From Patescibacteria group bacterium (lineage in GTDB: Bacteria; Patescibacteriota; Minisyncoccia; Phycocordibacterales; JACZSL01): DNA of 53,872 nucleotides. The position numbers were made by a program, and so were the translations under genes. Under the pieces are notes generated by a model that did not search any database, was not told the DNA's origin, and saw only the letters and a program-made list of their open reading frames with translations. Below are positions 12,945 through 53,796 of this stretch, in pieces. The stretch lies in assembly GCA_022574205.1 (NCBI GenBank), contig JACZSL010000003.1:1-53872 (forward strand), given 5' to 3'. Numbering within the stretch: position 1 is the first letter of the stretch; the number at the start of each line of letters is the position of its first letter.

Positions 12945-13079
12945 CCCGATAGTTACCCGCCTGCCATCGCTACAAAGCACAGGGGGTTTGTATTATTGCT
13001 TATAAATAATGACTCAACCTTTACGTTCATAATTTCAATGATAATAGCTATAGCTTTGGCGGGCGGGTAACTATCGGGA
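12944..13079 (-). mobile_element. Start-codon hairpin element at the HAD gene
   Basis: About 23-bp terminal IR with one mismatch; TGGA duplicated on both sides (12940-12943, 13080-13083), each as ATGGA on the minus strand. Confidence 0.8.
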
Positions 13080-16927: not shown

Positions 16928-18007
16928 TTATATCCCCTCCTCTTTGAGCTCTTCGACGAGCATTTTCGCTTTCTTCGAGAGTTTTTGCGGGAGTTTGATC
17001 TTTAGCTTTATAAATAGATCCCCACGTCCCCCACCGCGTTTTGGAACACCCTTACCGCGAAGGCGGAGCATTTCTCCGGGTGAAGCACCTTCCGGAACTT
17101 TTACTTGGATTTCGCCGTCTAGTGTCGGTAGTGTGTATTCTTTACCTAATAGCGCGTCTGTGAGTTTTATATTAAGTGTTGTTGTAATGTTGGTACCTTC
17201 GCGCTTAAACCGAGGATCGTCCTCTACGTGGAGCTTTACATACAGATCACCTGGCACACCGCCTGAGAGTGCCTCTCCAGCACCGCTAAGACGAATCATT
17301 TCACCATTATGAATATTTTCTGGAACTGTAATACTAATCTCAACCTCCTGCCTCTTAATACCGATGCCGTGGCAGTCATTACATTTATCGTGCGGGACTT
17401 CCCCCTTTCCATGACATGAATCACACACGCGCATACTCGTGAAAGTCCCAAGAAGTGATCTTTTTGTCTCGTGAATATTTCCCTTGCCGTTGCATGTAGG
17501 GCAAGTGTCCATGCTTGAACCAGCTTTTGCACCCGTTCCTTTACACTTCTTGCATTCGGACACTTTCGTTATGAGTACTTTTCTCTTTGTACCAAAAACT
17601 GCTTCAGTAAACGGAAGCTCGAGATCAATAGAAATGTCACGACCTCGCTTTACACGTCGTGCACCGCCTCCACCATTGAAGAATTCAGTAAAAATGTCTC
17701 CGAGATCGAAATTCTGAAAATCTTGTGCGTTGAATCCAGAGCCTCCAAAATCAAACCCTTCAAAGCCGGCTCCTGGTGCGCCTGGCGCACCAGCACCATT
17801 AAACACCCTTCCGTAGGAATCGTATTCAGCGCGTCTTTTATCATCTGATAAGATGTTGTACGCTTCGCTTATTTCCTTAAACTTCGCGTCGTCGGTGTTT
17901 CCTTTATCTGGGTGGTGTTTGTGCGCAAGCTTGCGAAACGCTTTTTTTATATCGTCTTTAGTGGCATTACGTTCAATGCCGAGGATTGTGTAATAGTCTT
18001 TATTCAT
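16928..18007 (-). CDS. dnaJ: Chaperone DnaJ
   Basis: HPD J-domain, G/F region, four CxxCxGxG repeats. Confidence 0.97.
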   Translation of the reverse strand: MNKDYYTILGIERNATKDDIKKAFRKLAHKHHPDKGNTDDAKFKEISEAYNILSDDKRRAEYDSYGRVFNGAGAPGAPGAGFEGFDFGGSGFNAQDFQNFDLGDIFTEFFNGGGGARRVKRGRDISIDLELPFTEAVFGTKRKVLITKVSECKKCKGTGAKAGSSMDTCPTCNGKGNIHETKRSLLGTFTSMRVCDSCHGKGEVPHDKCNDCHGIGIKRQEVEISITVPENIHNGEMIRLSGAGEALSGGVPGDLYVKLHVEDDPRFKREGTNITTTLNIKLTDALLGKEYTLPTLDGEIQVKVPEGASPGEMLRLRGKGVPKRGGGRGDLFIKLKIKLPQKLSKKAKMLVEELKEEGI

Positions 18008-18159
18008 CCCGTTAGAGAATTATCCTTTCAATATATAAGTGTAGTAATATATTAATATTGTCATCTCTCCCTCTCCACATCATCCAATCTATCCGTAATT
18101 CCTAACGGGACTTGTCCCGTTTAAAAAATTAGCCGTCTCTTATACATCCCCGTGGCGGA
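18007..18159 (-). mobile_element. Composite start-codon hairpin element at dnaJ
   Basis: Inner arm pair tcccgttag..ctaacggga (18007-18110), extra CCCG/CGGG arms at 18106-18119 and 18147-18159; TGAA duplication (18003-18006, 18160-18163). Confidence 0.65.
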
Positions 18160-18243
18160 ATTCATTGTGGTGTGGGCTTCTCAAGATTTGACTCTATTGT
18201 ATCACGGTGGGTAGAGGCTAGTAGAAAGAAAGGTGGATATTAG

Positions 18244-20847: not shown

Positions 20848-20990
20848 ATTTTCGAACCCACGGTTCTCAACATTCGCTCCACTCATTGCTCTCCTACACG
20901 AACTGAAAAGTGGTGGGATTGCTTTTCAGGCCGTTTCCGCGGAAAACAATCCCATTGCTTTTCGCCCTTTCCACAGCACAATGATCTTCT

Positions 20991-21407
20991 CTATCGCTTC
21001 GACCATTGAGCTGCTTTGCGCGCTTTCTTTAGACCAAATTTCTTGCGCTCTTTGACGCGAGGATCTCTCTTCAAAAATCCTGCTTTTTTGAGTTTTGTGC
21101 GAAGTGCTGGTTGAAGCTTAATGAGTGCTCTCGAAATTCCCAAGCGGATTGCCTCTGCTTGGCTGGTCTGTCCTCCACCGCGCACTTTAACACTGACAAA
21201 AAATGTTTTATCAATATCAATATTTCTCAGCGCTTCCTCAACAATTTTCTGAAGAGTTTTAATAGGAAAAAAGTCAACGTGGTCTTTATCATTTACAGTG
21301 AATGTTTCTTTCTTATTTTCAAAAAGACGTACGCGCGCAACAGCCGTTTTTCTCCGGCCGACTGCCTCAATGTATTCTCCTTTTTTCATTGCTGGAGTTG
21401 TTACCAT
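20991..21407 (-). CDS. rpsI: 30S ribosomal protein S9
   Basis: AVGRRKTAVARV...ERKKFGLKKARKAAQWSKR. Confidence 0.97.
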   Translation of the reverse strand: MVTTPAMKKGEYIEAVGRRKTAVARVRLFENKKETFTVNDKDHVDFFPIKTLQKIVEEALRNIDIDKTFFVSVKVRGGGQTSQAEAIRLGISRALIKLQPALRTKLKKAGFLKRDPRVKERKKFGLKKARKAAQWSKR

Positions 21408-21457
21408 GTCTTAGATCTTGTTAATTATTCTGAGCGTAGCGAGAAATAATGTTATTA

Positions 21458-21586
21458 AATCTTAAACCCGCCGCAGTTTTTGAACATACACCAAAATACT
21501 GTGCTAGCATAGCACATGTGTTTTTCTCCCATAATGTATCTTTTTTCCTCATGGTGTTTGTTCAAAAATTTAGGCGGGTAAATTCG
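21458..21586 (-). repeat. 129-bp structured intergenic repeat, copy A (rplM-rpsI)
   Basis: Homologous to 23995-24123; long imperfect stem acccgcc..tttttgaaca / tgttcaaaaa..ggcgggt; adjacent 11-bp hairpin at 21592-21624. Confidence 0.85.
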
Positions 21587-21636
21587 CTTTTCTGTATTCT
21601 ACTTCGATTCCTCGTAGAATACAGGATCTCATTTAG

Positions 21637-21984
21637 TTATTCTCTTACGTTAAGCTTTTTCATGCGTGGTGCACGTAACTTGTTGCCGGGAAGCATACCA
21701 TAAACTGCCTTGCGTACGAGTTCACCAAACCCATGTTTCTCTACAACCTTTTCTCCAGTACGAAATGATAGTCCTCCAGGATATCCTGAATATGAGGGGT
21801 ACTGTTTTTTCTTTAGAAAGTAGTCTCCTATGTCTAGCTTCGAAGCGTTGAGGACCTCAACCTCTACGTTGCTAATTTTCTGTGGCTCGTAATCTGGGCT
21901 GTCTTTACCCATGAGTTTATAAGCCACTTCAGTTGCGATTCGTCCAAGTTTTTTTCCTTTTGCGTCAATCGTGTGTTTTTTCAT
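21637..21984 (-). CDS. rplM: 50S ribosomal protein L13 (short)
   Basis: IDAKGKKLGRIATEVA...SGYPGG...AVYGMLPGNKLR; start MKKHT 1 nt after the rplQ stop. Confidence 0.95.
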   Translation of the reverse strand: MKKHTIDAKGKKLGRIATEVAYKLMGKDSPDYEPQKISNVEVEVLNASKLDIGDYFLKKKQYPSYSGYPGGLSFRTGEKVVEKHGFGELVRKAVYGMLPGNKLRAPRMKKLNVRE

Positions 21985-21985
21985 A

Positions 21986-22336
21986 TTATTCAACGAACTC
22001 AATAACTGCTTTTGATTCGTTACCTCGTCCTGACAGTTGACTTATCCTGGTGTAACCACCACCTCTTTCTTTGAAGCGAGGGGATAGTGTTTCAACAATT
22101 TTCTTAGCCTCGTCTTCACCTCCGCCAAGCCTAGATATTATTGTACGCCGAGAGGCGAGAGTTCCTTTTTTCCCGAGTGTAATTAATTTTTCAACGAAAG
22201 AACTAAGTGCTTTTGCTTTTGCTGGACTTGTCTCAATACGCTCACGTTCCACAAAAACACGTGCAAGGCCTCTAAGCAAAGCTTTTCTTTGTCTTGCTAC
22301 GCGTCCAAATTTTTTGTTGGTGTTGTAGTGTCGCAT
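21986..22336 (-). CDS. rplQ: 50S ribosomal protein L17
   Basis: ERIETSPAKAK, RFKERGGGYTRI. Confidence 0.95.
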   Translation of the reverse strand: MRHYNTNKKFGRVARQRKALLRGLARVFVERERIETSPAKAKALSSFVEKLITLGKKGTLASRRTIISRLGGGEDEAKKIVETLSPRFKERGGGYTRISQLSGRGNESKAVIEFVE

Positions 22337-22345
22337 GTTTCGTTT

Positions 22346-23314
22346 TTATTTGAGAACAATGCCGAAATTGCTCAATGCTCTCTTAATCTCCTGAAGCCCT
22401 TTAGTTCCAAGTCCTTCGAGCGCTAGTACGTCTTCTTCTTTCTTTCGTGCAAGCCCTCCAATCGTACGAATGTTTGCGTTTGAAAGTGCATTTACTGTAC
22501 GTGCTGAAAGATCCAGACTTTCGATACGTGTCTTCAAAGACTCCGAGTTAATCTCGTCCTCGTTTGTTGCGCCATGAGCCTCTTCTACATCGTCTTCTGA
22601 GGTAGGAATCTTAATCTCTTCCTCTTTAAATCCAATAATTGCTTTGAGTTGATTGATCATAATCTCGATTGATTTTTGAAGCGCCTCACGTGGTGTTATT
22701 GTCCCGTCTGTTTCAATAAAAACACGGAGACGATTAAAGTCAGTTCTGTCACCTATACGCATATTCTCTACTTCGTAATTTACCCTTCTTATCGGTGTAA
22801 ATGTTGCGTCGAGTGTAATTGTGCCAATATCTACTTTTTCTTTTCGAAGAACGTCCTTTGACACATACCCGAGTCCTCTCTCTACAGTGAGTTCAATATC
22901 AAGTTTTGTATTAGTTCCTGTTACCTCAACAATTGGTTGATCCGGATTCAAAATCTCAACTTGTGATGGTGCCTCAATGTCACTTGCAGTTATTTTCTTT
23001 GGGCCTTTGGATTTTAGTTGCATTGTCTGCGGTTCATCAGAGTGGACCAAAATACGAATCTTTTTTAAATTCAGCAAAATTGTGATGACGTCTTCTTTTA
23101 CACCAGCAAGTGTTGAGAATTCATGACTGACACCGTCAATCTTTATAGAAGTGATAGCGGCTCCAGGAAGACTCGACAAAATGATACGACGTAGCGAGTT
23201 CCCCAGAGTGTGTCCATACCCTGGATACAAACCATCTATCTCGTAGATGCCTATAAGATCCTCTTCTTTAACAATTCGAGGCTTGGATGGCAATGTTATG
23301 TTGTAATCTGGCAT
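22346..23314 (-). CDS. rpoA: RNA polymerase alpha subunit
   Basis: GYGHTLGNSLRRILLSS, VERGLGY, alpha-CTD LSARTVNAL. Confidence 0.97.
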   Translation of the reverse strand: MPDYNITLPSKPRIVKEEDLIGIYEIDGLYPGYGHTLGNSLRRIILSSLPGAAITSIKIDGVSHEFSTLAGVKEDVITILLNLKKIRILVHSDEPQTMQLKSKGPKKITASDIEAPSQVEILNPDQPIVEVTGTNTKLDIELTVERGLGYVSKDVLRKEKVDIGTITLDATFTPIRRVNYEVENMRIGDRTDFNRLRVFIETDGTITPREALQKSIEIMINQLKAIIGFKEEEIKIPTSEDDVEEAHGATNEDEINSESLKTRIESLDLSARTVNALSNANIRTIGGLARKKEEDVLALEGLGTKGLQEIKRALSNFGIVLK

Positions 23315-23341
23315 AATAGTGTTAATAATTTATTAAAATCC

Positions 23342-23959
23342 CTATCGACTGTAGTATTCCATGACAATTCCTATATCGAAAAGGGCTTCGATAGATTCCC
23401 TAGTTGGAATACTTTTAACCTTACCTTCTAATTTATTACGATTAAAATCTAACCAAGTTGGTACACTGCGCTCTTCTTCACCTTCTTTAATGTGAGCATA
23501 AAGCGGGCTATTTTTGCTTTTTTCTCGAACGGTAATTACATCATTTGCTGAAACGTGATGTGATGGTATGCTCGCTTTTTTATCATTCACACGAACGTGT
23601 CTATGCGAAACCATCTGCCGTGCTCCACGCCTTGTCGTTGCTAGTCCAAGTCGAAAGAGAACATTGTCAAGACGAGTCTCAAGCAGTACCAAAACATTGC
23701 TTCCGGGGTCTCCTTGCTTTTTATTTGCCATACTAACGTAGCGCGACAATTGCTTTTCCGTAATACCATAAGTTGCCCTAACGCGCTGTTTTTCAAGAAG
23801 CTGTTTTCCATAATCGCTAAGGCGACGAGGACGTCCTCGGCCAATTCTCATCCCAGACTGACGCCTCGACTCTCGTAGGGCATACTTCTGTGTCTGACAC
23901 TTTTCGTAGACTGAATTCCCCAACCTTTTACATACTTTGTATCGTGGTCCTACAATCAT
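23342..23959 (-). CDS. rpsD: 30S ribosomal protein S4
   Basis: LSDYGKQLLEKQR, LETRLDNV, ARQMVSH. Confidence 0.97.
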   Translation of the reverse strand: MIVGPRYKVCKRLGNSVYEKCQTQKYALRESRRQSGMRIGRGRPRRLSDYGKQLLEKQRVRATYGITEKQLSRYVSMANKKQGDPGSNVLVLLETRLDNVLFRLGLATTRRGARQMVSHRHVRVNDKKASIPSHHVSANDVITVREKSKNSPLYAHIKEGEEERSVPTWLDFNRNKLEGKVKSIPTRESIEALFDIGIVMEYYSR

Positions 23960-23994
23960 GTTAGATTTTATTAGCGAGCAAGGCGAGATTAGAA

Positions 23995-24123
23995 AATCTT
24001 AAACCCGACAAAGTTTTTGAACACACACCAAAATGCTGTGTTAGCGTAACATGAGTGTTTTGTTCTTTCAATATGTTGTTCTCTGTCATAATGTTTGTTC
24101 AAAAATTTAGGCGGGTAAATTCG
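23995..24123 (-). repeat. 129-bp structured intergenic repeat, copy B (rpsK-rpsD)
   Basis: Same length as copy A, last 32 bp identical; adjacent 12-bp hairpin at 24129-24160. Confidence 0.85.
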
Positions 24124-24168
24124 TACTTCTAGATTTTGTTTTGTTCCTAACAAAATCTAGGTGTTTAT

Positions 24169-24603
24169 TTATACTCTCCTAGGCTTTTTTGCCCGTGGAC
24201 CGTTAAATGGAATAGGTGTCATATCTTTAATGGTTTTTATCTTAATACCTTTTGATGAAAACGCACGAAGCGAACTCTCGCGCCCGCTCCCCACTCCTTT
24301 AATAACAACATCAACATCTTTAACACCGATTAGTGCAGCTTTTTCCCCAACAAGCTCGCCTACTTTTGCTGCGGCAAAAGGAGTCCCTTTTCGTGCCCCA
24401 CTAAAACCGAGAGCTCCACATGATGAAAAAATAACAGCACCACCTTCTTTGTCTGTAAGCATAAGTATTGTGTTGTTGTATGTTGCTTTAATATGTAAAA
24501 TACCTGCCTCCATTCTTTTCTTTGGCACGCGAGAAAGAGACCGACTTTTTAGACCTTGGTTCATTCCACCTCCTTTTTTCTTAACAATTCGTTTCTTTCC
24601 CAT
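24169..24603 (-). CDS. rpsK: 30S ribosomal protein S11
   Basis: ATYNNTI, KGTPFAA, GVGSGRES, PIPFNGPRAKKPRRV. Confidence 0.97.
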   Translation of the reverse strand: MGKKRIVKKKGGGMNQGLKSRSLSRVPKKRMEAGILHIKATYNNTILMLTDKEGGAVIFSSCGALGFSGARKGTPFAAAKVGELVGEKAALIGVKDVDVVIKGVGSGRESSLRAFSSKGIKIKTIKDMTPIPFNGPRAKKPRRV

Positions 24604-24641
24604 TTTAAATTTGGTTGGATATTCTGAGAGTTAATATTTAT

Positions 24642-25166: not shown

Positions 25167-25278
25167 CCCGATAGTAATAGGACACGGACATTAATTATCC
25201 TTGCCATAAATTTAAACTTTTGTAATTGTTCGACTTTTTCTTCATATATCGTGTTAGTGTCCGTGATTACTATCGGGA
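25166..25278 (-). mobile_element. Start-codon hairpin element at rpmJ
   Basis: Terminal IR tcccgatagtaat/attactatcggga plus inner cacggacaytaa arms; TGAA duplication (25162-25165, 25279-25282); an extra decayed arm CTAATAGG-ATG precedes it. Confidence 0.8.
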
Positions 25279-25420
25279 TTCATCCTATTAGAGAGTTTTC
25301 TCTCTTGAAAAATGTACCAACTCTAATAAAAATACTCCACTCCCTCATTCCCTTTTTATAAACAAAAAAAACTACGAACACGCCTTTGGCGTAAATAACA
25401 AGTAGTTATAGTCTTTTCCC

Positions 25421-26039: not shown

Positions 26040-27344
26040 CTACTCTCCTTCAAGTTCAAGAATCTGTTTTATGCTGATTTCTTCTGCGTCATCAGGAAAA
26101 CTCTTGCGCCAGAATGGCCGAACTATCACCTCTGCGCGATCGATGCCAGGATACCCTGAAAGTATAGTATAGATTGCTTCTTTTGCCCTACCTGCGAGGT
26201 CTGCCTTTAGCTGCTCTTCGTCATACAGCCAAACAATTTCGACATTACCTGTAAGTGAGAATAAAAGCGGCGACTCTTCCCACGGATTCACACCTTCATC
26301 ACTCTGCCTAGGAATGAGTGTTAGTGCTGATAGATTCAAAATGTCTACAGGGCTGTCGTCGTAATTTCCGAGTGTATTTTCCGCAAGGTAGCTAGCAAGT
26401 TCGGTACTTGTGAATAAAACGCCGTGAAGTATTCCTTTTTCACTAACAACTGCATCAGTTCCTGACTCCACTATAGGTAATGTTTCAAATTCTACAAAGA
26501 GTGAGTTGTCGAAGAAAACAAAACCTTCGGGTGTTTGTTTTGCAATGTCCGAGCGTAATGTTGTCTCAATCTCCTCGCGAAGAACCTGCCTAGTCGATGC
26601 AAGCAAACTGTCTTCAACAACCAACTGCTCTCCTATAAATCCTCCTGTCATTAACGTTACACTTCGCGCGTAGAAGTTTTCAAATTGCGGCGCACCTTTA
26701 AAACCCGGTATGACAAAGTCTGTGAGTCCCCTGTTATAACTTTCTCCTGCCTCATCTGCGTAGACTGTAACCTCAGCGCTCCCTGGAGTTGTGACACCTC
26801 CCTCTTTCGTCTGGCCTGGTACTACAACAGACTTATCAATACGATAAATTTGTCCGTCTGGTGTTTCAAAACGAGTGTTGCGGATAAGTCGCTGACCGAC
26901 AGTGTTGTAATCGTTGTATATGATTATTTTTCCGCTAGCTTTTTGCTCAACTTGTTCTCTCCCTGTTGCTTGAACTGTATCGGTCTTTGTGACACTCAAC
27001 TCAACTGTCTCATATTTAAGGCCTTCACCTGTCTCTTTAGATGGTATTGCAGAGAATGTGCCATCAACAACTAACCGTTCGTGTTTTGGGTAGATTGTCA
27101 CTTGTGCGCCTGAAAGCACCATAGATATTGCGAGAAAGCCTAGAGCAAGGAATAGGATAACAGCGACACTAACATAAAGAATGGATGGCCTTTTCCCTCG
27201 GCGAGGCATGGGCTCGCGTGGTGGTGCTGGTCTAAACCTGTCTCCTTCTTCGTAAGGTGGACGCTTGATGTTAGAATCCACAGGCGGACGTTTTGGTCTT
27301 CGTCCTCCTGGAATTACTATGTCCCGAATTGTGTTTCTTGCCAT
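26040..27344 (-). CDS. Membrane-anchored protein with a baseplate J/gp47-like domain
   Basis: One TM then KASGKIIIYN, NTRFETPDG, VTVYADEAGESYN, GGF motifs (recalled pattern). Confidence 0.55.
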   Translation of the reverse strand: MARNTIRDIVIPGGRRPKRPPVDSNIKRPPYEEGDRFRPAPPREPMPRRGKRPSILYVSVAVILFLALGFLAISMVLSGAQVTIYPKHERLVVDGTFSAIPSKETGEGLKYETVELSVTKTDTVQATGREQVEQKASGKIIIYNDYNTVGQRLIRNTRFETPDGQIYRIDKSVVVPGQTKEGGVTTPGSAEVTVYADEAGESYNRGLTDFVIPGFKGAPQFENFYARSVTLMTGGFIGEQLVVEDSLLASTRQVLREEIETTLRSDIAKQTPEGFVFFDNSLFVEFETLPIVESGTDAVVSEKGILHGVLFTSTELASYLAENTLGNYDDSPVDILNLSALTLIPRQSDEGVNPWEESPLLFSLTGNVEIVWLYDEEQLKADLAGRAKEAIYTILSGYPGIDRAEVIVRPFWRKSFPDDAEEISIKQILELEGE

Positions 27345-51821: not shown

Positions 51822-52750
<929 letters not shown>

Positions 52751-52805
52751 TTAGATTATGTTAGTAAATTTGAGCATGTCGATAATTTGCGTTACAGAAT
52801 GTTAG

Positions 52806-52848
52806 ATCCTGTGATTTGTGCTCATGAAATGAGCACCAAACACAGGAT
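52806..52848. other. Intergenic hairpin between atpG and atpD
   Basis: atcctgtg-atttgtgctcat-gaa-atgagcaccaaa-cacaggat. Confidence 0.6.
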
Positions 52849-52881
52849 TAAGTAAAATATATTTGTTTATAAATTCGCTCA

Positions 52882-53796
52882 TTATTTTTCTAAACTTTCC
52901 ATTCCACCAATAATTTCACTAACCTCACGTGTAATAAGCGCCTGACGGGCTTTATTAAACTTAAGATTTAACTCTTTCGAAATCTCCTCTGCTTTGTCCG
53001 AAGCATTCTTCATTGCAACCATTCTGGCTGAATGCTCGCTGGCTTTTGCCTCAATCAATGAGTGAAATACCTGAATGTTTATTAAAAAAGGTAAAAGTTC
53101 TTTGAAGATTTCATCAGAATCCGGCTCGAGCGTATATGATTGCACTTTTGTGTCATGCTCTTCGTCGGAGAATTTTCCAGTCTTCGGAACTATACCTTCT
53201 ATAACATCTTCCACTGCGCCATATGAGATAGGAAGGAGTCTTCGTATAACTGCCTCTTGTTCAAATGTGGAAAGAAACTGCGTGTAGAAAACATCACATC
53301 TGTCTATCTCACTGTCTTCAAACATTTTTATCAGCTTATTAGTAATCTCTTTCATATCATCAGTAGATACGTCATCGTTTATGTTGTCATAAGATTCGAT
53401 CACATTGAAGCCACGCTTTTTAAAGAATTCGCTACCTTTCTTTCCAATACATATAAACTTAGTATTTTCCTTAGTAAGCCCCCTTTCCTCCATATGCGCT
53501 TGAACTTTCTTTAAAATAGCGTTGTTTAAGTTTCCAGCAAGCCCTTTGTCACTGGTTACAACTAAAAAGCAACTAATTTTAGCATCCCTTTTTGCACGCA
53601 AAGGTGTGTTATCAAGTGTTCCACTTTCGCTCACGCGATGCAATATGTTTAGCGCAGAGTATGCATATGGCCTTGCCTGCAAAGCCCATTCCTGACTTTT
53701 GCGCATCTTAACTGCCGAAACTGCCTCCATAGCCTTCGTCACTTTATGCGTCTTATCAACAGAACGTATTTTGCTTTTAATAGTTTTGAGTGACAT
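52882..53796 (-). CDS. atpG: ATP synthase gamma subunit
   Basis: KVTKAMEAVS, TSDKGLAG, SEHSARMVAM, RQALITREVSEI. Confidence 0.95.
   Translation of the reverse strand: MSLKTIKSKIRSVDKTHKVTKAMEAVSAVKMRKSQEWALQARPYAYSALNILHRVSESGTLDNTPLRAKRDAKISCFLVVTSDKGLAGNLNNAILKKVQAHMEERGLTKENTKFICIGKKGSEFFKKRGFNVIESYDNINDDVSTDDMKEITNKLIKMFEDSEIDRCDVFYTQFLSTFEQEAVIRRLLPISYGAVEDVIEGIVPKTGKFSDEEHDTKVQSYTLEPDSDEIFKELLPFLINIQVFHSLIEAKASEHSARMVAMKNASDKAEEISKELNLKFNKARQALITREVSEIIGGMESLEK

Follow-up and report, generated by a model that had tools for sequence, protein, structure and literature searches.

Several classes of small, non-coding, multi-copy repeats form hairpins in the transcribed gaps of operons, among them miniature inverted-repeat transposable elements (MITEs) and the ERIC/IRU, Correia/NEMIS, RUP and BOX repeats. 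Repeats of the MITE type are insertion-polymorphic between strains, and have longer relatives with the same arms that bear an open reading frame (ORF). Free-standing homing endonuclease genes (such as the GIY-YIG genes seg and mob of T4) place a GIY-YIG ORF between highly conserved genes, and are present or absent at the same locus in close relatives. REP/BIME sequences with their RAYT genes (REPtrons) combine abundant intergenic palindromes within operons with a palindrome-flanked gene for a single-domain nuclease. In the mitochondrial DNA of chytrids and fungi (Allomyces), double-hairpin elements are mobile, multi-hairpin, intergenic, and reported beside a mobile endonuclease ORF. Traits of these kinds recur in a family of intergenic elements represented in a 53,872-nt stretch of a Patescibacteria group bacterium (contig JACZSL010000003.1 of assembly GCA_022574205.1; hereafter the window, meaning the whole stretch), where two copies, W1 and W2, lie in the ribosomal protein operon. 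The family is apparently an undescribed mobile intergenic element of the Paceibacteria, which are bacteria of the candidate phyla radiation (CPR). Literature searches on GIY-YIG proteins with Patescibacteria, MITEs, UPF0213 or inverted repeats turned up no account of such elements, and Rfam gave no match at the gathering score for the window and six element-rich loci, and none at E ≤ 10 for the operon.

The family also departs from each of these systems. Unlike MITEs, it lacks terminal inverted repeats at its ends and target-site duplications, only one orientation is seen, the 3' end is flush with a start codon, and the ORF is of the GIY-YIG type, not a known transposase. It is multi-copy and polymorphic, and its ORF-bearing relative, which may or may not be an autonomous form, has the same arms and tail. 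The replacement of whole gaps together with an adjacent single nucleotide polymorphism (SNP, at window position 24178) is homing-like, as expected of repair-mediated copying. Unlike homing enzymes, however, the ORF has no DNA-binding module that would give long targets, and unlike homing genes the family occupies many different gaps, its ORF-less copies far outnumber those with an ORF, and conserved hairpins flank the ORF; the window copies hold no ORF of the homing-endonuclease type. REP/RAYT systems differ in having an HUH Y1 transposase in place of a GIY-YIG domain, and lack the much larger three-hairpin unit, the fixed orientation and the abutment to start codons. The Allomyces-type elements are organellar, unrelated in sequence, and have no fixed relation to start codons. 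By sequence, the ORF matches the Slx1/UPF0213 proteins (PDB 1zg2, 1ywl) but, unlike these as described (PMC1564403), it sits inside a repeated, polymorphic hairpin cassette. A group I intron with a GIY-YIG ORF, which would have its P3-P8 core inside a gene, was considered and rejected: the element lies between genes, is made up of just three hairpins and is not matched by Rfam Intron_gpI.

Copies in the window and their gain or loss between strains

The operon is on the minus strand and runs infA-rpmJ-rpsM-rpsK-rpsD-rpoA-rplQ-rplM-rpsI, followed by grpE-dnaK. Its gaps measure 1–38 nt except for two, rpsK-rpsD (209 nt, 23960–24168) and rplM-rpsI (229 nt, 21408–21636). The repeated unit is the entire stop-to-start gap, and consists of hairpin 1, a long hairpin 2, and a tail that forms a weak hairpin 3. 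The features are as follows (window positions):

21408–21636, minus strand: W1, 229 nt, one full ORF-less element forming the entire rplM(L13)-rpsI(S9) intergenic region
21592–21624, minus strand: W1 hairpin 1, perfect 11-bp stem CTGTATTCTAC/GTAGAATACAG, loop GAGGAATCGAA
21466–21579, minus strand: W1 hairpin 2, ACCCGCC..TTTTTGAACA // TGTTCAAAAA..GGCGGGT, inner hairpin GTGCTA/TAGCAC
21408–21465, minus strand: W1 tail (hairpin 3), TTAAGATTT ... AAGATCTAAG AC, with the rpsI ATG next (21405–21407)
23960–24168, minus strand: W2, 209 nt, one full ORF-less element forming the entire rpsK(S11)-rpsD(S4) intergenic region
24129–24160, minus strand: W2 hairpin 1, perfect 12-bp stem CTAGATTTTGTT/AACAAAATCTAG
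24003–24116, minus strand: W2 hairpin 2, placed by folding and core alignment
23960–24002, minus strand: W2 tail (hairpin 3), TTAAGATTTT CTAATCTCGCCTTGCTCGCTAAT AAAATCTAAC, with the rpsD ATG next (23957–23959)
52748–52881, minus strand: third, diverged copy filling the atpG-atpD gap, TGAGCGAATTTA.., hairpin TCCTGTG..CACAGGA, TCTAAC...CTAACATAATCTAAGAT, then the atpD ATG
24604–24641, minus strand: rpsM(S13)-rpsK(S11) gap, 38 nt, solo-tail-like, ..CTCAGAATA..AAATTTAAA, its likeness to the W1 tail judged by eye

The cores of W1 and W2 (21458–21586 and 23995–24123) align over 129 nt without gaps at 79% identity, and the 122-nt stretch from TTTACCC to GGGTTTAAG is 78% identical. Aligned over their whole length, the two gaps show 84% column identity and have an exact 31-nt 5' arm in common. 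Folding is far better in both than in their dinucleotide shuffles (z = -5.7 for W1 and -3.5 for W2; 0/200 shuffles as good). In W1, hairpin 1 separates ATGAG from GCGAATTT, which together make up the conserved family motif TTATGAGCGAAGCGAATTA; it is a new 11-bp hairpin in place of the C-GNA-G mini-hairpin found between ATGAG and GCGAAT. The W1 tail has extra bases relative to the family consensus, and a hidden Markov model (HMM) of the tail finds both copies (W2, E = 1.3e-13; W1, E = 3.7e-6). A first-pass annotation, made from the letters alone, had described two cores of equal length with a long stem before rpsI and rpsD, perfect 11- and 12-bp hairpins upstream without a U-tract, and a common tcgc..gctc..tctaa tract ahead of the ATG; all of this holds for both copies, although its 129-nt boundaries were too narrow, the upstream hairpin and the pre-ATG tract being part of the same repeated unit. 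The compensatory change it saw in the inner hairpin is a true C-G to T-A exchange (GTGCTA/TAGCAC vs TGTTA/TAACA), but the neighbouring pair is lost in the second copy. It overlooked the third hairpin in the tail and the link to a GIY-YIG nuclease gene.

A covariance model (CM R1), built from 23 copies of other genomes with the window sequence left out, matches W2 (64 bits, E = 1.3e-10), W1 (26 bits, E = 0.0035) and the atpG-atpD gap (31.9 bits, E = 2.6e-4, span 52747–52897), and finds nothing else in the window below E = 0.9. Since a model free of window sequence matches the atpG-atpD gap, this is taken to be a third, diverged copy.

For comparison with relatives, 80 loci around S4 homologues were fetched. 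The closest GTDB species has 59% S4 identity, and an exact 21-mer of the arm gave no match in the GTDB genomes, the species not being among the representatives. The near relatives are all Paceibacteria/Parcubacteria with unchanged gene order, and have a median gap of 15 nt at S11-S4 (n = 66) and of 4 nt at L13-S9 (n = 61), most gaps being 1–40 nt. The element is not a conserved leader at orthologous gaps. Known ribosomal leaders (Rfam Alpha_RBS, L13_leader, S4 leaders) were rejected as candidates on these medians and on the lack of an Rfam match. A few relatives have large gaps elsewhere in the operon, with the same architecture and a very similar 3' tract:

L019: S13-S11 and rpoA-L17
L031: S13-S11
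L066: rpoA-L17 and S11-S4
L001: L36-S13

Exact-protein look-ups yielded a strain set of 17 contigs from the same species group, with 96–100% protein identity. Near-identical strains differ in this way at four or more gaps of the operon, four of which are listed here in their empty and filled states:

S13-S11 gap: empty 38 nt, filled 195 nt
S11-S4 gap: empty 4 nt (GATT), filled 209 nt
rpoA-L17 gap: empty 9 nt, filled 141 nt
L13-S9 gap: empty 6 nt (TTTAAT), filled 229 nt
Example of an empty stop-start junction: ..TATAAGATTATGATT..

Different contigs show different combinations of these states, so that elements are gained or lost between strains. W1 is present in the window (WIN), L081, L083, L087–L089, L091 and L093, with TTTAAT in its place in L090 and L092; W2 is present in WIN, L082, L085, L086, L089 and L097, with GATT instead in 10 strain contigs. 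At S13-S11, where the window has 38 nt, a 195-nt full element is found in L082, L090–L093 and L096. The window and L081 are separated by only 16 SNPs in 10.6 kb, yet differ in the S11-S4 element, as well as by a 155-nt indel and by a 117-nt element at rpmJ that belongs to a different family, the start-codon family (see below). The SNP at 24178 adjoins the S11-S4 element in an otherwise nearly SNP-free background. Filled and empty alleles occur side by side in single marine-sediment metagenomes (runs X1–X5). A metagenome scan for the window-type arm returned only 5 loci, none of them a full-length copy from this species. In Logan contigs, one more copy was seen between different flanking sequences, and at L13-S9 an element whose core and tail are W2-like. 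One metagenome run (X2, in the comparison of X1–X3 with window 21380–21660) combines at the L13-S9 site a hairpin 1 of W1 type with a W2-like core and tail, a mosaic that suggests recombination or gene conversion between copies. Since the 5' ATGAG belongs to the conserved motif (A/T)TGAGCGAAGCGA in the loop of hairpin 1, it was rejected as a possible duplicate of the ATG.

The wider family and its GIY-YIG reading frame

A tail-pattern scan, with or without the 5' arm, gave 81 loci, 78 of them in CPR metagenome-assembled genomes (MAGs) from about 39 species, often with many loci per genome; true copies from this pattern are confined to CPR MAGs. The tail HMM raised the number to 124 distinct copies, of which 118, from about 40 genomes of Paceibacteria/Kaiserbacteria, lie outside the strain set and window. 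Of these 118 copies, 109 (92%) are followed at the tail end by the start of an ORF of 35 aa or more, and 103 have a hairpin-2 base that is paired at 12 or more of 14 positions. Co-directional upstream genes mostly have their stop 32–37 nt ahead of hairpin 2, a distance that matches hairpin 1 and its linker. The downstream genes are mostly ribosomal or housekeeping genes (L10 six times, L24 five times, L6 and L17 four times each; Hsp70, rpoC, def, L20, S11, S14 and S4 three times each). In locus L099, eight copies within 7 kb of the spc operon fill almost every gap. The tail consensus, GGGTNTAAGATTTTCTAA..CTCGC..GCTCG.TAA.AAAATCTAAS, ends at the ATG and is carried by the window copies, which also have a hairpin 2 of the form TTACCC-stem...stem-GGGT, preceded by a hairpin 1 that carries the ATGAGCGAA/GCGAAT motif. 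Arms and loop of hairpin 2 vary among copies; the arm type of the window copies, ACCCGCCTAAATTT, is found in L129, L182, L143 and L136 (Kaiserbacteria copies included) and in the GIY-YIG-bearing L141. Loops fall into size classes of about 13, 25–30, 70–90 and 265 nt, with the ORF in the 265-nt class only. Some copies are nested or in tandem: in the S8-L6 gap of L099 (2412–2679) an extra long hairpin lies inside the tail, and in L195 (about 1030–1185) an ORF-bearing copy whose tail is truncated is joined to the hairpin 1 of another copy, a short one.

Hairpins 2 and 3 show covariation. Across the model alignment of 146 sequences, pairing holds in 96% of cells and both sides change in 19 of 20 pairs, a level reached by 0/500 shuffles, and sliding the partners abolishes the signal; an independent count on ungapped arms found 3–4 Watson-Crick pair types at positions 5–14. 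The tail is a third hairpin, with GTAAGATTTT paired with AAAATCTAAC, whose end lies 0–5 nt before the ATG of the next gene. Here, covariation links the base that follows GGGT to the one at -1 to the ATG (G-C 78, C-G 31, A-U 18, U-A 5). As RNA, hairpin 3 is weak (-2 to -8 kcal/mol; z = -0.4 to -2.8). The first-pass annotation had proposed a covariance model and a genome scan as a check, and had offered a mobile hairpin family as one of its explanations: the covariation is strong, further copies exist in CPR genomes, and the multi-copy, multi-site, presence/absence-polymorphic distribution bears that explanation out.

C-GNA-G triloops (GCGAAGC, GCGCAGC, GCGTAGC, ACGGAGT; alignments A4/A5) abound in the loops of hairpin 1 and in the inner hairpins of hairpin 2. 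Triloops of this type (GCGAAGC) form unusually stable DNA mini-hairpins and are typical of DNA rather than RNA. In W2, the 5' arm of hairpin 1 can pair alternatively with the tail end AATAAAATCTAAC. A translational-coupling switch, in which the hairpin-1 arm pairs with the tail, was rejected, since it holds for W2 but not in general (mean z about 0 over 90 copies). A z below -2 for pairing between 5' region and tail end is seen in 7/90 copies; the inverted repeats are internal. Motifs resembling a Shine-Dalgarno (SD) sequence are rare, both before tail-bearing genes (2/104) and before the ordinary genes of operons in these bacteria (20/351). The tail is poor in G and rich in A; together with the general lack of an SD sequence in operon genes, this is consistent with a role of the tail in keeping the local initiation context. 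The sequence GCTCGCTAATAA could be read as boxA-like, a reading on which nothing here relies.

A GIY-YIG ORF is recurrently linked to the family. The L099 gap before rpsN holds a full cassette with an 86-aa ORF exactly between the arms (..ACCCAGCACCTTGTTTGTTT[ATG...TAA]ACAAACAAGGTGCTGGGTATAAGATTTTCTAAC..), flanked by AGCACCTTGTTTGT and ACAAACAAGGTGCT. Its product matches Pfam PF01541 (E = 3e-16), with profile positions 1–77 of 78 covering residues 3–76, and the closest solved structures are those of UPF0213 (1zg2 and 1ywl) and SLX1. Full-length members of the family carry such an Slx1/UPF0213-like ORF of 84–92 aa in the loop of hairpin 2. A genome search with the L099 protein found 17 loci, 10 of which are flanked by or adjoin the arms and tail of the family and lie upstream of S14, L10, L11 or a membrane protein. 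Retrieval by tail only yields further ORF-bearing copies (L141, L145, L177, L195). L141 has the window's arm TTACC.GCC.AAATTTTTGAAC and tail (arms TTACCTGCCCAAATTTTTGAACG ... CGTTCAAAATTTAGGCGGGTGTAAGATTTTCTAAC), and its GIY-YIG ORF contains one in-frame TAG. More distant small GIY-YIG ORFs in L110, L113, L116 and L118 adjoin tRNA genes, without cassette arms or tail. Dunin-Horkawicz et al. 2006 (PMC1564403) described the Slx1 family's representatives in prokaryotes as a minimal stand-alone GIY-YIG domain, inferred mainly vertical descent for the family, and did not decide if any other GIY-YIG proteins might be molecular parasites.

Origin and spread of the elements

The explanation we favor, at a probability of roughly 0.65, is that W1, W2 and the atpG-atpD copy are ORF-less members of a lineage-specific, nuclease-associated mobile intergenic cassette of Paceibacteria/Kaiserbacteria-like CPR bacteria. 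Such a cassette fills the entire gap between two co-directional genes, and consists, in order, of an AT-rich hairpin 1 (with GAGCGAAGCGA in its loop), TTACCC, the long hairpin 2, GGGT, and the conserved tail as hairpin 3. Short copies, with loops of about 13, 25–30 or 70–90 nt, resemble what deletion of the ORF-bearing form might leave, and would be non-autonomous, relying on a nuclease gene at another locus. The cassette nuclease is similar to structure-specific ones and may drive or maintain the spread, for example by breaks that are repaired from a filled copy, whereby whole gaps would be swapped rather than cleanly inserted. The element would be co-transcribed, and its G-poor, A-rich tail could keep SD-independent initiation of the downstream gene going, which would explain the single orientation, the position flush with the ATG, and the occurrence in highly expressed operons. 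In metatranscriptomes at contig level, possibly contaminated with DNA, the element is contiguous with rpsD, and one contig extends from rpoA across rpsD and on into the element; contigs of this kind cannot show processing. A broader version of this idea, to our minds falling somewhat short of even odds, is that minimal nucleases of the Slx1/UPF0213 type, hitherto regarded as vertically inherited housekeeping enzymes with no assigned role, are the engine of a new class of selfish elements in CPR bacteria: a three-hairpin cassette that colonizes the stop-start junctions of the most highly expressed operons, brings along an SD-less initiation hairpin by which the downstream gene stays expressed, and degenerates into numerous copies without an ORF.

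Several results weigh against a nuclease-borne cassette. No target-site duplication or direct repeat is found at the four filled/empty pairs, and the alleles do not differ by a clean insertion, the native spacer of 4–38 nt being replaced. Complementarity between 5' region and tail end is no better than in shuffles (90 copies, mean z about 0), the ends generally not being inverted repeats. The 54-kb window has no GIY-YIG gene and none could be shown in this species. Outside the arms, no similarity of the W1 and W2 loops to the nuclease ORF was detectable. The ORF comprises the catalytic domain only (about 85 aa), without a DNA-binding domain to recognize many stop-start junctions. It lies downstream of a short copy in L119/L121 and on the opposite strand in L201, and may be an invader of a pre-existing host hairpin rather than the ancestor. 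Mismatches on the sense strand (G-T 75 vs A-C 55, p = 0.095) do not separate selection on RNA from selection on DNA. The first-pass claim that selection acts on structure stands for the pairing, which is kept through compensatory change, with the RNA or DNA level left undecided by this count.

The main rival takes up these points. It accepts the same facts of mobility, and differs on which part came first and in assuming a useful RNA role: the element would be a host-co-opted intercistronic RNA module, with processing or stabilizing punctuation and an SD-less initiation hairpin, spread by recombination, and the GIY-YIG gene would be a secondary invader of the hairpin-2 loop. Homing-endonuclease ORFs are known to use intron loops as a safe harbor, and the ORF here is likewise looped out where folding would stay undisturbed. 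The strictly sense orientation, with 92% of copies abutting the ATG, the strong covariation of hairpin 3 beside the start codon, the enrichment of copies in the most highly expressed operons (the spc operon of L099 is nearly full), the metatranscriptome contig from rpoA into the element and the slight excess of G-T over A-C all agree with such a module. The excess is not significant, however, hairpin 3 is very weak as RNA, and the C-GNA-G triloops are those of DNA mini-hairpins. The element is also dispensable, being missing at each site in near-identical strains, and relatives mostly have 1–40 nt in its place. On balance we regard an RNA module as unlikely, at perhaps a minority share of the odds.

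The other alternatives fare much worse. The first-pass annotation had considered a feedback element bound by S4, S9 or L13, which would repress translation of rpsD or rpsI, and a structured RNA directly upstream of both genes is indeed what such a leader would look like. The element is absent, though, from the orthologous gaps of 60–70 relatives, is gained or lost between near-identical strains, and elsewhere precedes unrelated genes (L10, L24, L6, L17, dnaK, rpoC, def, metK, a T2SS-F gene); with no Rfam leader match even at E ≤ 10, autoregulation is highly improbable. Nor does a small protein encoded by the element seem credible. Frames of 42–63 aa that open with an ATG inside the element, such as the 63-aa ORF that fills the S13-S11 copy, end within about 12 nt of the next ATG in W1, W2, the S13-S11 and rpoA-L17 copies, L019, L031 and L066, and one was annotated by a gene caller (L092 733–924). 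However, in L099 the frames are either interrupted by 1-nt indels or have no start codon, copies differ in the frame in which conserved nucleotides are read, variability by codon position (34/37/44 in the conserved 107-nt class) shows no third-position excess, and there is no Pfam match. The strong hairpins between cistrons could also be read as an intrinsic terminator, an attenuator or an internal promoter that subdivides the operon, but the coding strand has no U-tract after hairpin 1 or 2 and a scan found no sigma-70-like promoter on that strand of the elements, leaving very little in favor of that reading.

If the elements are indeed nuclease-associated cassettes, the widespread stand-alone GIY-YIG proteins (UPF0213/YhbQ-like) would acquire a testable role, with a nuclease tied to a structured repeat, and streamlined CPR genomes would be seen to tolerate active repeats in operons for ribosomal proteins, ATP synthase and chaperones. 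As natural insertions that space tightly coupled cistrons by about 200 structured nt, the elements are probes of SD-independent initiation and coupling. They also matter for annotation and binning: gaps with an element break assemblies (contigs end in repeats), spawn spurious calls of small ORFs, and can be mistaken for regulatory RNAs.

Other repeats in and around the operon

The start-codon family is represented at the start of rpmJ by a 117-nt element (25169–25285, minus strand) with arms CCCGATAG.. / ..CTATCGGG and the flanking direct repeat ATGAA. It is missing from near-identical strains, where the infA-rpmJ gap is 137 nt instead of 254 nt, and for this reason the start-codon family, too, is currently mobile. 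As the first-pass annotation noted, the arm TTACCCGCC and its complement are also nested in the start element of a HAD gene (12953–13070), with 4 matches vs 0.21 expected. The kinship it suggested between the two families is not established, because they have little in common beyond this 9-nt arm and a CTAAC motif beside the ATG, and because the clean ATGAA/ATGGA direct repeat of the start-codon family is missing from the cassettes; at rpmJ the duplication is clean.

Compared with the window, L081 has an insertion of 155 nt around position 26153. The rpsI-grpE gap (20887–20990) has 104 nt with a long hairpin, GAAAAGCAATGGGATTG..CAATCCCACCACTTTTC, which is outside the cassette family, and only about 30 nt in L090. 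The dnaK-dnaJ gap (17990–18243) measures 236 nt in L081 and L089 and 92 nt in L090; its end, TCTAACGGGATG, is that found at the 3' end of start-codon elements. In a Kaiserbacteria MAG (L038, 3275–6790), a different repeat, CCACTAG...CTAGTGGCTAATCACTAT, occurs in every gap of the same operon, at 98–148 nt each, so that several unrelated repeat families appear to have colonized operon gaps in this clade. Between rplE and rpsN of L099 (4700–5400), in addition to the GIY-YIG cassette, a 195-aa ORF on the opposite strand is flanked by a direct repeat of about 38 nt (CCTTATATTATAGCTATAGCCACTGGATAGGGA.ATGG) and accompanied by a 199-aa ORF, apparently a second insertion in this spc operon.

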